Below are positions 17,511 through 21,207 of a stretch of DNA of 64,000 bases, in pieces. Each line of letters opens with the position of its first letter. The first letter of the stretch is position 1. Source of the DNA: a virus. Lineage: Duplodnaviria > Heunggongvirae > Uroviricota > Caudoviricetes. Where the stretch lies: IMG/VR virus record IMGVR_UViG_2778261505_000002. One strand, written 5' to 3'. The notes under the pieces are model-generated. The model ran no database searches and was not told the DNA's origin. It saw nothing but the letters and a program-made list of their open reading frames with translations. A program made the translations under genes and the position numbers.

Positions 17511-17714
17511 GTGCGTAAAGGATGTTTCGGCTCTCTTATCGCTGCTTCTGAAACTGGTAAGGCTTGTCTGGTGTGTCCAGACAAGCCCGATTGTCACCAA
17601 TCAGCAAAAGAAGTTGCGATTTCGATGCATGGGAAGTTCGTAGGCTTCCCCAATGACAAAATCAAAAAAACCAGAAAGGTAAAAACACATGAAGGCACTG
17701 ATGGTTCGAACTGA
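17511..17714 (+). CDS. Small Cys-rich hypothetical protein (GTG start; weak)
   Basis: 67-aa track ORF with CLVCPDKPDC; overlaps polymerase start. Confidence 0.25.
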   Translation: MRKGCFGSLIAASETGKACLVCPDKPDCHQSAKEVAISMHGKFVGFPNDKIKKTRKVKTHEGTDGSN

Positions 17715-20700
17715 CTTCTCACTTGGGGAGTCGGCTCTAAAAGCAGAAAACGCGGTGAAGATTGCCAGAGAAGCTGGCTACACCGCTGTAATTTCAGCAG
17801 ATAGCATGAATATTGCGAGCGTTATTCCACTACAACGTGCCGCTGGTGACGACATGGCGGTTATTTGTGGTGTGAAACTAAACATTGTTGATGATCCCAC
17901 ATACGAGCACCGGGCTAAACTTGCTAAAGAATCTATGAGATGTATGGAATCATTAGAGCGAGGACGTAACTACTCGTTTACCGCTCTAATTAAAAATGAG
18001 AAAGGATATCGCGACATCTGCGAACTAATGACGGCGGCCAACACACGAGAACAGTTCTACTTTGTACCGCGTCTCTCGCTCGAACAGTTGGTTTCTACAT
18101 ATGCCAAAGGCAACATCATCCTGCTTACTTCCGACATCGGTAGCGTGTTCCAACGCAACGATTTTGCAAAAATCATAAGCACACTGATTACAGCGGGTGG
18201 AAAAGACAACTTCTATAGTGTGGTTTATCCGCACCCTACCCCATTCTACGACCAGATTAACGTCCGGGCGATGAAAGTCGCCAGCGCATTGAAAATAGAG
18301 CCAGTGGCGTTCTATCCCGCTTATTACGAATCGATCGACGATGCAGACATTAAAGACATTGCGCACATGGTTACGAACAACATCAAAATCGACCAGCCGC
18401 ATCGTCTGCGTATCCCCCACCAGCGAGATAACGCCGTCAATGGTCGCCGCCATCTCCTTGAGGCGCTTAAAGCCTTCTCCGTTCGCATGGATGTGCCGGT
18501 AACAGCTGCAATGGCCTCAACAACGCAGGATACCATTATCGATGCCTGCACATGGCGCTGGCATGAATTGCCGCCAGCACTGCCAAAGATGGCAGACGAC
18601 GAGCCTGCAACGCTGATGAAACTGGCTGTTGCAGGGCTGCGTAAACGTCTTACCACAAAAGAGTTTGGATACACACCACCTGCTTCTGAGAACAGGGTTT
18701 ATGTTGAGCGGCTAAAGTACGAAATGGACACGCTGACTCGCCTGGGATTCTGTGGTTACTTCCTGATGGTACGCGATCTGATGAATCACAGCCGTGAAAC
18801 TGGCATTCCTGTCGGGCCTGGTCGTGGTTCCTCCGCTGGATCTCTGGTGGCATGGTGCATAGGCATAACCAACGTCGACCCAATCCGTCACGGTCTTCTG
18901 TTTGAGCGTTTCATCAACCCTGAGCGTCTCGACTTGCCAGATGCGGATTTGGACTTCAGCCAGGCACGTCGCCATGAGGTGATCGAGTATCTGAATGAAC
19001 GATACGGCGAAGATTACGTTGCAGGTATTCCTAACTTCACATATCTGGGCGCAGCCTCTGCACTACGTGACACCGCTCGTATTTATGGTGTGGAGTCCGC
19101 AGATATGGCGGTATCAAAAGAGCTGAGGAACGTCGAGGATGATAGCCTTCCATTGGAAGAGCTGCGCGAACAACTGGCAAGTCTCGACAAATACGCGACA
19201 AAATACCCTGATGCATTCAATGCAGCCTGCAAGTTACAAAGCCTTATGCGTGGCTTTGGTAGACATGCGGCAGGGATGATTGTAGCAGGTGTTCCTCTGA
19301 CAGAACGTACACCGGTTGAACGACGTGGTGACGCGCGTTGTATCGCATTTGACAAGCGTTACTGCGAGGCTATGGGCCTAATTAAGCTGGACGTGCTTGG
19401 CCTGGCAACTCTCGATTTGCTCGATAGTGCAAAACGCTACATAAAAGAGAACACAGGTGAAGATATCAATCTTGATGCCATTTCTCTTGAAGATCGCAAG
19501 GTGCTGGATGGTTTTGCTGCTGGGTACACTCAAGGTGTTTTCCAGCTTGAATCAGGCCCAATGCGCAAGCTGCTTAAAGATTTAGGTGGTGGAATTGAGC
19601 CAATGAGCTTTAAAACGGTCGTTGCTACGACTGCGCTCTTCCGGCCGGGGCCAATTCAGTCAGGCATGTTGGATGATTATGTTTCTGTCGCCAAAGGCTT
19701 TATGACGCCGGAATCATTACACCCCGTTCTTGATGAACTTACCGCAGAAACAAATGGCGTGATTCTTTATCAGGAACAGACGATGAACGCGACTCGATTG
19801 CTTGCTGGCTTCACAATGGCTGAAGCTGACGGCGTTCGTAAAGCGATCGGCAAAAAAGACATGGAGAAAATGAAGAGCATGGGTGAGAAGTTCATCGTTC
19901 AGGCTCAAGCTGGCTGGATAGACGTTGAGCTGGAAGATGGCACTACACAGCGCATTCACCGTGCGGAACATTTTAAATGCGAAGACGGAACACTGAAAAC
20001 TGTCGAAGAGGCACTTGAGTACGGCGCAAAACTACCTATAAACGCAGTACGCGTTACAGCGTCACATCCAGGGCTATCAGAGATGAAAGCGAAGGAGATC
20101 TGGACCGCATTCGAAAAGAATGGTGCCTACCAGTTCAACAAATCACACTCTGTTGCTTACTCCTTAATCAGTTATCAATCTATGTGGTTGAAAACTCATT
20201 ATCCCGCAGAGTTTTTCGCTGCTGCTCTCACTATTCTTGGCGAAGATAAACACCAGGGGCTGGTTAAAGATGCGCTGACCTATGGTATTCGCGTATTGCC
20301 ACCAGACGTTAACGTGTCATCTAACCGAATCGAGATCCGCACGCTTGAAGATGGCAGCCAGGTGCTGTATGCGCCCTTCTCTGCTGTGAAAGGGTGTTCT
20401 GAGAATGGCTGCCAAGCCATCATGAGAGCGCGAGAAAAAGTTGGCGGCAAATTCGAGTCACTGGCGCAATTCGAAGAAGCTGTCGAGAAACGTGCCTGTA
20501 ATAGTCGAGTGCGCGAATCACTGCAAAAAGTAGGTGCGTTTGCATCCATCGAGCCAGGTAGTCTGCCAGCAACTGATCCAGAGCGTCTCCGCGACCAGGC
20601 TGAATTGATGGGAAACCTTGTCATAGACGCAGTTAAAGCCTCACGTCCGTTTGAGATGAACCCCAAACGTTCGGCTGAAATTAACGCACTCATGACACGG

Positions 20701-21207
20701 ATGGCGGCTGAAATGGGCTTAGGTGATGAACTAATCCGCCCCAGCATTGGTATTAAGCCGAAAATCATGATCATTCTGGACAATGCGAACGGCAATGATG
20801 CTCGAACCGGTTACTTCATGGAGAACGGATACGACGACTTTAAGGCCAAGCTATTGACGGCTGGAGATTTACGCATGGGCGATCTCTATGTCACAGGCGT
20901 TTGCAAGAAGGTTAAAGACAAAGAAAAAGACTACACCAAAGACGAGATCGGCCAGTTCACCGACTTTATACGTGAAGAGATCAATCTGGTGCGTCCGACC
21001 TATGTGCTGACGTGTGGCAGCCGGGCAACGGCATTGTTTAACAACAAAAACAAGCCATCCGATTTGGTCGGCAGGAAGGAGTATCTTCCAGACCTTGACG
21101 TTACTGTCTTTTACGGGTTTAACCCCAACATTCTTTACTTCAGACCTGAAGAGGGAGAACGACTAGAAGCGATATTAGCCGACGTAGCAGAAACTATTAA
21201 GACGTGA
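17689..21207 (+). CDS. DnaE-like DNA polymerase III alpha-type polymerase with degenerate PHP domain and C-terminal UDG-superfamily-like domain
   Basis: 1172 aa; core GPGRGSSAGSLVAWCIGITNVDP...LLFERFINPERLDLPDADLDFS and FNKSHSVAYSLISYQSMWLKTHYPAEF match DnaE; N-terminal metal-binding His replaced (MVRTDFS); C-terminus LYVTGVCK...LVRPTYVLTCG resembles family-4 UDG fold. Confidence 0.85.
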   Translation: MKALMVRTDFSLGESALKAENAVKIAREAGYTAVISADSMNIASVIPLQRAAGDDMAVICGVKLNIVDDPTYEHRAKLAKESMRCMESLERGRNYSFTALIKNEKGYRDICELMTAANTREQFYFVPRLSLEQLVSTYAKGNIILLTSDIGSVFQRNDFAKIISTLITAGGKDNFYSVVYPHPTPFYDQINVRAMKVASALKIEPVAFYPAYYESIDDADIKDIAHMVTNNIKIDQPHRLRIPHQRDNAVNGRRHLLEALKAFSVRMDVPVTAAMASTTQDTIIDACTWRWHELPPALPKMADDEPATLMKLAVAGLRKRLTTKEFGYTPPASENRVYVERLKYEMDTLTRLGFCGYFLMVRDLMNHSRETGIPVGPGRGSSAGSLVAWCIGITNVDPIRHGLLFERFINPERLDLPDADLDFSQARRHEVIEYLNERYGEDYVAGIPNFTYLGAASALRDTARIYGVESADMAVSKELRNVEDDSLPLEELREQLASLDKYATKYPDAFNAACKLQSLMRGFGRHAAGMIVAGVPLTERTPVERRGDARCIAFDKRYCEAMGLIKLDVLGLATLDLLDSAKRYIKENTGEDINLDAISLEDRKVLDGFAAGYTQGVFQLESGPMRKLLKDLGGGIEPMSFKTVVATTALFRPGPIQSGMLDDYVSVAKGFMTPESLHPVLDELTAETNGVILYQEQTMNATRLLAGFTMAEADGVRKAIGKKDMEKMKSMGEKFIVQAQAGWIDVELEDGTTQRIHRAEHFKCEDGTLKTVEEALEYGAKLPINAVRVTASHPGLSEMKAKEIWTAFEKNGAYQFNKSHSVAYSLISYQSMWLKTHYPAEFFAAALTILGEDKHQGLVKDALTYGIRVLPPDVNVSSNRIEIRTLEDGSQVLYAPFSAVKGCSENGCQAIMRAREKVGGKFESLAQFEEAVEKRACNSRVRESLQKVGAFASIEPGSLPATDPERLRDQAELMGNLVIDAVKASRPFEMNPKRSAEINALMTRMAAEMGLGDELIRPSIGIKPKIMIILDNANGNDARTGYFMENGYDDFKAKLLTAGDLRMGDLYVTGVCKKVKDKEKDYTKDEIGQFTDFIREEINLVRPTYVLTCGSRATALFNNKNKPSDLVGRKEYLPDLDVTVFYGFNPNILYFRPEEGERLEAILADVAETIKT

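Follow-up and report, generated by a model that had tools for sequence, protein, structure and literature searches.

The gene at 17689-21207 (+) of the 64,000-nt stretch analysed here (IMG/VR record IMGVR_UViG_2778261505_000002; the whole stretch is referred to as the window) encodes a DnaE-type (C-family) DNA polymerase in which a predicted uracil-DNA glycosylase (UDG) fold stands in the place of the usual C-terminal domains. This fold lacks the canonical catalytic residues of family-4 UDGs. On balance, the gene probably encodes the catalytic alpha subunit of a Pol III-like replicase with a non-catalytic UDG-fold accessory module. The window belongs to an E. coli phage-plasmid of the SSU5/pHCM2 type. 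Elements of this type, which carry their own Pol III-like replicase, occur very commonly in clinical Escherichia, Klebsiella, Enterobacter, Salmonella, and Yersinia.

The architecture as such has been known since 2014, when a DnaE variant with a C-terminal UDG domain (the 'DnaEX' group) was reported from plasmids of Y. pestis and S. enterica (Timinskas, Balvociute, Timinskas, Venclovas, NAR 2014; PMC3919608). As described in that paper, this 'unusual variant' has the identical order PHP, Pol3, (HhH)2, and UDG, the last replacing the OB domain and the C-terminal domain (CTD), and it shows no architectural difference from the window DnaE. With its PHP-Pol3-(HhH)2-UDG organisation on an extrachromosomal element of Enterobacterales, the window DnaE fits this variant, and its gene is the orthologue, from E. 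coli, of the genes on those plasmids. The idea that phage polymerases can carry inactive UDG domains is likewise established for family A, and annotation pipelines already label the C-terminal open reading frame (ORF) of split versions of the gene 'uracil-DNA glycosylase'. The loss of the catalytic motifs, the clamp motif of the group, and the phage context were not found discussed in the accessible part of the 2014 paper. None of the papers retrieved gave the residue-level loss in C-family fusions, a size for the clade in metagenomes, a conserved clamp motif, or a selection estimate, and literature searches returned no experimental work on the SSU5 or pHCM2 polymerase, nor any on how a C-family polymerase functions with a degenerate glycosylase fold in place of OB and tau-binding domains. 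The present analysis adds the residue-level loss, the clade-wide clamp motif, an epsilon in trans, the selection estimate, synteny, and a split by homing endonucleases, which are refinements rather than a new system.

The ORF comprises 1172 codons and a stop, and starts at the first start codon past the upstream stop. Nucleotide identity over 17689-21207 was 98.4% with Escherichia phage CMS-2020a, 97.1% with PhiR41_1, 84.6% with Salmonella phage SSU5, and ~80% with Klebsiella phage-plasmids, while the plasmid copies of S. enterica (~107 kb) and Y. pestis (94-101 kb) showed ~84-85% DNA identity to the gene. It was carried by 745 plasmid records, including 276 from Klebsiella, 221 from Escherichia, 91 from Enterobacter, 63 from Yersinia, and 49 from Salmonella, and protein clusters at 98-99% identity to the window DnaE held 2676 and 1693 member sequences. 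Because of these large clusters and the number of plasmid records, the gene is no chance ORF. The features discussed below are collected in Table 1.

Table 1. Positions in the window of the DnaE-UDG gene, its domains and motifs, and associated genes.
Feature	Position (nt)	Strand	Basis or remark
CobT-like vWA protein gene	14069-16177	+	upstream of DnaE-UDG
CobS-like MoxR-type AAA+ ATPase gene	16273-17508	+	upstream of DnaE-UDG
DnaE-type (C-family) DNA polymerase gene	17689..21207	+	1172 aa + stop; orthologue of SSU5_052; phrog_405 full-length match
PHP domain (~aa 1-290), metal site predicted to be abolished	17689..18558	+	Pfam 6e-13; alignments to 5lew, 2hpi
Palm/thumb and first part of fingers (aa 309-740)	18613..19908	+	PF07733, PF17657
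Catalytic D418 and D420	18940-18948	+	coordinates checked; D568 at nt 19390-19392
Lineage-specific 52-aa fingers insertion (aa 742-793)	19912..20067	+	SSU5 subclade only in alignment A2
(HhH)2 / beta-binding domain (aa 866-955)	20284..20553	+	HHH_6 1.8e-16
RLRDQAELMGN (aa 966-976), candidate beta-clamp-binding motif (QAELM)	20584..20616	+	position of E. coli alpha 920-QADMF-924
Family-4-derived UDG-fold domain (aa 985-1172; alpha/beta core from ~aa 1019), predicted	20641..21204	+	AF2, Foldseek, TIGR00758
LDNANG (aa 1030-1035), degenerate motif A	20776..20793	+	column for column with GE[AG]PGx of family-4 sequences
LYVTGVCK (aa 1066-1073), counterpart of family-4 'VYITNxVKC'	20884..20907	+	114-domain alignment
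FNPNIL (aa 1144-1149), counterpart of motif B HP[AS]	21118..21135	+	114-domain alignment
DnaQ-like DEDDh 3'-5' exonuclease, 185 aa	46193..46750	+	PF00929 4.3e-22; phrog_192 'DNA polymerase exonuclease subunit' 2e-50

Predicted UDG fold of the C-terminal domain

Profile searches with the single sequence gave weak matches in the C-terminal part. PF03167 was matched at E=0.015 with the whole protein and at 9.5e-4 with aa 956-1172 (15.8-19.7 bits vs. a gathering threshold of 24.3), and TIGR00758 at 2.8e-7 (30.4 bits vs. a cut-off of 125.3). The fold was therefore tested by structure prediction. The AF2 model of aa 956-1172, built from an alignment of 58 relatives, reached a pLDDT of 93.2 and a pTM of 0.90, and Foldseek matched it to the family-4 UDGs 1l9g, 4zbx, and 1ui0 and to UdgX (E 3e-11 to 1e-10, TM 0.63-0.80), with family 5 and TDG/MUG ranking further down. 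PF03167 was matched by all 58 aligned relatives of the domain. At the level of the predicted structure, the UDG fold of the C-terminal domain is established. A sequence-only reading of the window had likened the C-terminal ~170 aa to family-4 UDG, and this resemblance withstood profile and fold searches, the fold match being significant at E ~1e-11.

The predicted fold corresponds to the alpha/beta fold with a four-stranded parallel beta-sheet that characterises the UDG superfamily. The domain has the same alpha/beta fold and strand order as UdgX and the family-4 UDGs of T. thermophilus (UDGA, 1ui0), T. maritima (1l9g), and S. tokodaii (4zbx), at 15-20% identity. The residues it has in common with canonical family-4 UDG are mostly core or structural ones: Y1067, T1069, K1073, E1097, P1103, and G1110. 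A word-indexed search with the isolated C-terminal 212 aa returned only six fragments, and an exhaustive search of representatives was used instead: with aa 985-1172 as the query, phmmer found 135 representative relatives (50% clustering). About 40 of these were DnaE proteins of 1080-1240 aa with the UDG-like domain at the C-terminus, and another ~40 were proteins of ~390 aa, which at least in some cases represent the C-terminal half of a split DnaE gene. Some of the relatives stand alone, and canonical family-4-like enzymes appeared as the weakest matches only.

Loss of glycosylase residues and selection

For the residue-level comparison, 114 UDG domains, including canonical sequences with GEAPG and HPA, were aligned with MAFFT, and column counts were made over 95 relatives. 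At motif A, the window protein has LDNAN (aa 1030-1034) against GE[AG]PG, and the consensus of the clade is x-D-x-[PA]-[NST], with D at position 1031 in 83/95 sequences, P or A at 1033 in 86/95, and N, S, or T at 1034 in 72/95. The uracil-recognising Asn of ITNxVKC is replaced by G1070 (mostly G, S, T, or A in the clade) in a stretch where Y1067 is invariant among the full-length relatives (alignment A2) and T1069 and K1073 are nearly so. At motif B, N1145 takes the place of the catalytic His and is followed by the nearly invariant P1146, most of the clade having N/S/T-P. In this alignment, no residue of the query was in register with the stacking Phe of GxPF, a position that is unconserved in the clade, and no Cys was present at any of the four 4Fe-4S cysteine positions; the Fe-S position in the LYVTGVCK stretch corresponds to K1074, with C1072 out of register. 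The same losses were found in ~100 distant relatives, while GEAPG and HPA are kept by the few canonical family-4-like sequences that this search also returned. The sequence-only reading had remarked on LDNANG where GEAPG is expected, and the alignment bore this out column for column, with canonical motifs absent from the window protein.

In ~40% of the distant DnaE-fused UDG-like domains, a CxxC-x3-H upstream of the core and a later Cys correspond to three of the four family-4 Fe-S positions (P0135, P0143, P0152, and P0156 are among these partial keepers); none of these is left in the SSU5 group. Part of the clade may still have a metal or cluster site.

The UDG-like core also differs in charge, with an isoelectric point (pI) of 5.1 in the query and a clade median of 6.5, compared to 8.6-9.8 for most of the canonical-like sequences in the same set. 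Compared with family-4 UDGs, the window domain is acidic and not basic, is fused to a polymerase, and is without the Fe-S ligand set CxxC...C...C. From its sequence we infer that the UDG-like domain has lost the ability to excise uracil and is a pseudo-glycosylase. The same had been proposed earlier, as a structural UDG-like module and not an active glycosylase, and finds in silico support in the motif loss and the fold. The pseudo-glycosylase reading is unproven, since D1031 keeps an acidic group at motif A.

This acidic residue is one argument for the alternative that the domain is still catalytically active as a DNA glycosylase but has changed in specificity or chemistry. It would then act during replication, on the template or on nascent DNA, with, for instance, a MUG/TDG-like or a hypoxanthine/xanthine-type activity or by recognition of a modified base. 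D1031 stands at the Glu position of GE[AG]PG and is followed by P/A and N/S/T, and motif B reads N/S/T-Pro, an Asn-Pro motif B being also found in E. coli MUG-type glycosylases. The fold and the pocket-forming strands are kept at high model confidence, purifying selection on the domain is strong, and phage PolA with a fused, active UDG domain is known from SP15-like phages (bioRxiv 10.1101/2025.03.26.645540). Nevertheless, the uracil Asn, the motif-B His, the stacking Phe, and the Fe-S cluster were lost together, position 3 of motif A is variable (A, C, G, or N), the profile scores lie far under the family thresholds, and the parallel domain of N4-like PolA has been read as inactive. An altered glycosylase consequently appears distinctly unlikely.

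Selection was estimated by the Nei-Gojobori method between the window and SSU5. The dN/dS was 0.043 for the UDG-like core, 0.023 for the polymerase core, and 0.073 for the PHP domain, all of these values being approximate because dS is near saturation. The UDG-like domain is under strong purifying selection. That it might be a non-functional evolutionary remnant on a functional polymerase would agree with the loss of all canonical catalytic features and with the sub-threshold family scores; this explanation was already disfavoured and is hardly credible, as the dN/dS of the domain is comparable to those of the PHP domain and polymerase core and contradicts it, the domain is kept at ~30% identity in 135 representative clusters, including cases of split DnaE, and AF2 predicted a confident, compact fold.

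Polymerase core and candidate clamp motif

Pfam recognised four domains in the 1172-aa protein: PHP at aa 6-176 (6e-13), DNA_pol3_alpha (PF07733) at 309-571 (1.7e-73), the finger domain (PF17657) at 574-740 (2.6e-44), and HHH_6 (PF14579) at 866-955 (1.8e-16). The score for the DnaE superfamily model TIGR00594 was 631.7 bits, above its cut-off of 434; none of the DnaE equivalog cut-offs was reached (678.6 bits vs. 1002 for DnaE1, NF004226). D418, D420, D422, and D568 were invariant in 43/43 aligned full-length relatives (alignment A2), and D418, D420, and D568 correspond to D401, D403, and D555 of E. coli alpha. Judging by these residues, the catalytic centre of the polymerase is intact. The full-length AF2 model (pLDDT 90, pTM 0.83) matched the Pol III alpha subunits of Taq (2hpi), M. 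tuberculosis (5lew), and E. coli (2hnh) in Foldseek with E-values of 2e-61 to 2e-49 and 26-29% identity. The DnaE-like nature of the core, already recognised from the sequence, was in this way confirmed by Pfam, TIGR00594, the invariant catalytic Asp residues, and Foldseek.

All DnaE profiles ceased to match at ~aa 955, and the OB and C-terminal tau-binding domains are for this reason taken to be absent. The resulting order is PHP, palm/thumb/fingers, (HhH)2, and then the UDG fold in place of the OB and tau-binding domains, in agreement with the earlier suggestion that the UDG-like module replaces the usual C-terminal domains. The likeness to E. coli Pol III alpha (28-29% identity, TM 0.61-0.82) extends to a disrupted PHP metal site, a separate DEDDh exonuclease, the catalytic Asp triad, and (HhH)2 followed by a Q-x-[DE]-[LM]-[FM] motif. 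The window DnaE differs from it in being without the OB domain and tau-binding CTD, in keeping 0/9 PHP ligands, and in a 52-aa insertion in the fingers. How a C-family polymerase works without OB and tau-binding domains would bear on the evolution of replisomes.

Directly after (HhH)2, the candidate clamp-binding peptide RLRDQAELMGNLV contains QAELM (aa 970-974), which fits Q-x-x-L-[F/M/L] and takes the position of the clamp motif 920-QADMF-924 of E. coli alpha (PMC3201878). The consensus given in PMC3919608 is QL[S/D]LF, with positions 1, 4, and 5 the most important and a placement after (HhH)2. The predicted motif is conserved clade-wide: over the 95 relatives, R966 was present in 91, Q970 in 81, E972 in 59, L973 in 74, M/L/I at 974 in 88, and P/G at 975 in 87. 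No clamp or clamp-loader family was matched among the 34 ORFs of the window that were scanned, and a beta clamp, presumably that of the host, is accordingly the likely partner. The conserved QxELM motif suggests that such a clamp is used.

PHP domain and probable proofreading in trans

The ligand positions of the PHP domain were read from alignments to M. tuberculosis DnaE1 (5lew) and Taq alpha (2hpi). The nine ligands of M. tuberculosis DnaE1 (H14, H16, D23, H48, E73, H107, C158, D226, and H228) correspond to M5, R7, E14, S39, K63, S96, S148, P210, and Y212, so that 0/9 canonical ligands are kept and E14 (Asp to Glu) is the sole acidic side chain. The sequence-only reading had drawn attention to MVRTDFS in place of an H-x-H-containing start; the observation stands, and the loss extends well beyond it. 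The missing H-x-H as an artefact of a wrongly chosen start codon was considered and ruled out: since no other start codon lies between the preceding stop and the start of the ORF, an in-frame N-terminal extension with H-x-H is impossible, and homologues have the same N-terminus. Among the full-length relatives in alignment A2, 37/43 likewise keep 0/9 ligands, with R7, E14, T39, R63, and P210 as recurrent replacements, and one distant member (P0237) keeps 8/9. On these residues, the PHP domain is best described as a metal-free structural domain.

A dead PHP domain is ordinary and typical of proteobacterial-type DnaE with a separate epsilon. According to PMC3919608, the DnaE1 of alpha-, beta-, and gamma-proteobacteria have disrupted PHP sites and rely on epsilon, and because the window also encodes a DnaQ-like exonuclease, the dead PHP is no peculiarity of this polymerase. 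The sequence of the DnaQ-like product has recognisable Exo I (DIE), Exo II (NGEAFD), and Exo III (HSALYD) motifs, and the collinear gene SSU5_086, with the same length of 185 aa and the same neighbours, is annotated as 3'-5' exonuclease. Going by these motifs, the 185-aa protein is the probable proofreading subunit in trans for the PHP-dead DnaE. A polymerase without any proofreading was ruled out by the presence of this gene. The E. coli epsilon has ~243 residues, including a long C-terminal alpha-binding tail; the phage protein is shorter.

Proposed role of the UDG-fold domain

In the mechanism we favour, the UDG-fold domain would be a built-in accessory module of the polymerase, most likely one that handles the template or the duplex or that in some other way keeps the polymerase stably on DNA; we infer this role because the domain follows the clamp motif where the OB domain normally sits. 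Part of the processivity would come from a beta clamp, presumably that of the host, recruited via the conserved QxEL[ML] motif, and the phage DnaQ-like protein would dock on the dead PHP domain and proofread as epsilon does in E. coli. The phage replication set of the window is complete and further includes a DnaB-like helicase, a primase, a gp32-like single-stranded DNA-binding protein (SSB), FEN, RNase H, and a ligase.

There are precedents for such a role in other polymerase families. The UDG domains of SPO1 and T5 PolA were proposed to be intrinsic processivity factors by analogy with vaccinia D4/A20 (PMC3201878), the family-4 UDG domain of N4-like PolA, with unconserved catalytic residues, was proposed to be a processivity module (PMC10201439, Czernecki et al. 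2023), and the active UDG of SP15-like PolA reads the template ahead of the fork (bioRxiv 10.1101/2025.03.26.645540). The N4-like PolA and the active SPO1/SP15-like UDG-PolA resemble the window protein in being phage replicative polymerases with a family-4 UDG fused in cis. They differ in belonging to family A and not C and in having the UDG at the N-terminus, whereas that of the window protein is C-terminal; the C-family and PolA fusions look independent. In poxviruses, D4 forms a processivity factor with A20 for E9 and is thus a UDG-fold protein with a structural role in a viral replicase (as cited in PMC3201878 and PMC4889955); it is a separate, catalytically active family-1-like UDG bound via A20 to a B-family polymerase, while the window domain is fused and degenerate. 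UDG folds have been recruited repeatedly by viral polymerases of families A, B, and C, and an answer for the present domain would bear on this. The role of D4 in the replicase is independent of its glycosylase activity.

Several observations weigh against a DNA-handling, non-catalytic module. The UDG-like core is not basic, and its near-neutral or acidic pI speaks against strong non-specific binding to DNA and would be compatible with a role in protein docking. The residue at 1031 is acidic in 83 of the 95 relatives and conservation within the domain is comparatively high in the loops of motifs A and B, which would also fit a retained catalytic or base-flipping pocket. Moreover, the domain is placed relative to the path of the DNA by domain order only.

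Another explanation is that the UDG-like domain is a protein-protein docking platform which functionally replaces the tau-binding CTD and makes no contact with DNA. It would link the polymerase to a further replisome component of the phage, which could be the DnaB-like helicase, the primase, the gp32-like SSB, the DnaQ-like exonuclease, or the AAA+/vWA pair of CobS-like and CobT-like proteins. In E. coli alpha, coupling to the replisome is the task of the CTD, and the UDG-like domain occupies the position of OB and CTD; its near-neutral or acidic pI is unlike that of canonical UDGs, no tau or clamp-loader match was found among the window ORFs scanned, and the CobT-like, CobS-like, and DnaE-UDG genes are adjacent both in the window and in related contigs (see below). 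Against this, the best-conserved positions outside the core correspond to the loops of motifs A and B, which face the DNA, and every known function of the UDG fold involves DNA. A pure docking role is rather unlikely on this evidence, and the accessory module acting on DNA is retained as the preferred explanation.

Gene neighbourhood

The CobT-like and CobS-like genes lie directly upstream of DnaE in the window and in 4/6 related contigs (L086, L088, L089, and L092), down to 33% identity; of the remaining two contigs, L091 has the CobS-like AAA+ gene next to DnaE and then ends, and L090 starts at DnaE. Their proximity to DnaE suggests that the two genes are functionally linked with the replicase. 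In database records they are annotated as 'porphyrin biosynthesis'. One could go further and suppose that the pseudo-UDG, the CobT-like vWA protein, and the CobS-like AAA+ ATPase form an undescribed phage replisome sub-assembly, in which the UDG fold would serve as a template 'read-ahead' or docking element and the AAA+/vWA pair would replace tau/clamp-loader coupling. We consider this a long shot and very improbable; if true, it would represent an organisation of C-family replicases not seen in cells.

As far as the contigs reach, the recurrent order is integrase, CobT-like vWA, CobS-like AAA+, DnaE-UDG, a small ORF, gp32-like SSB, FEN, RecA, Mre11, Rad50, and ribonucleotide reductase (RNR). 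The window shows this synteny, as do the contigs of relatives with identities as low as 33%, two of these being chromosomal prophages in contigs of 386 and 459 kb. A scan of viral contigs with the single sequence returned near-identical SSU5-like loci only and no loci of the distant clade.

Two small ORFs flank the polymerase gene. The one between DnaE and the gp32-like SSB gene (21333-21764, +; 143 aa) matched phrog_2058 and had no Pfam match; an ORF of similar size (139-194 aa) is found between the same genes in SSU5, L086, L089, and L092, and the 143-aa product is a candidate replisome accessory protein. On the other side, a Cys-rich ORF of 67 aa (CLVCPDKPDC; 17511-17714, +) overlaps the start of DnaE by 26 nt. 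Its position matches that of SSU5_051 (hypothetical protein), and its translation may be coupled to that of DnaE.

A block of genes for nucleotide metabolism at 38384-45058 (+) includes the large and small subunits of RNR, a MazG/PRA-PH-like pyrophosphohydrolase (42026-42895), a long thymidylate synthase (43040-44170; 376 aa, with matches to two separate stretches), and dihydrofolate reductase (44582-45058). With this block the element controls its own dTTP supply and possibly dUTP levels, a relevant background for a polymerase with a degenerate uracil-glycosylase fold.

Fingers insertion and mobile elements

For the 52-aa fingers insertion, AF2 placed strands at 743-793 and predicted a small beta-rich module; no Pfam match was found for aa 742-793 even at E<=10. 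The insertion site is the point at which DnaE is split on several Klebsiella and Enterobacter plasmids and in one Klebsiella phage, vB_KpnS_p4727 (L005 602-4854), where a free-standing NUMOD4/HNH homing-endonuclease gene (L005 2962-3663) lies between DnaE ORFs of 787 and 389 aa. The insertion may be a permissive linker or a scar of HNH invasions. A remnant of a Hint domain or intein, considered for a likeness to intein block B seen by eye, was unsupported, as there was no Pfam match and the split relatives carry free-standing NUMOD4/HNH genes and no intein.

Selfish elements concentrate in the replication genes of this phage group, which are hot spots for them; others observed in relatives were a LAGLIDADG element in a DnaE, an intein in RecA, and an intein in the large subunit of RNR (loci L089 22189-23378, L090 8-3733, and L092 16185-18359). 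Some database proteins (P0103, P0109, and P0124) combine an N-terminal part of DnaE with a RecA domain (PF00154), possibly as a result of deletions or misassemblies. The RecA-like gene itself varies in length, with 2340 nt in PhiR41_1 vs. 1077 nt in SSU5.

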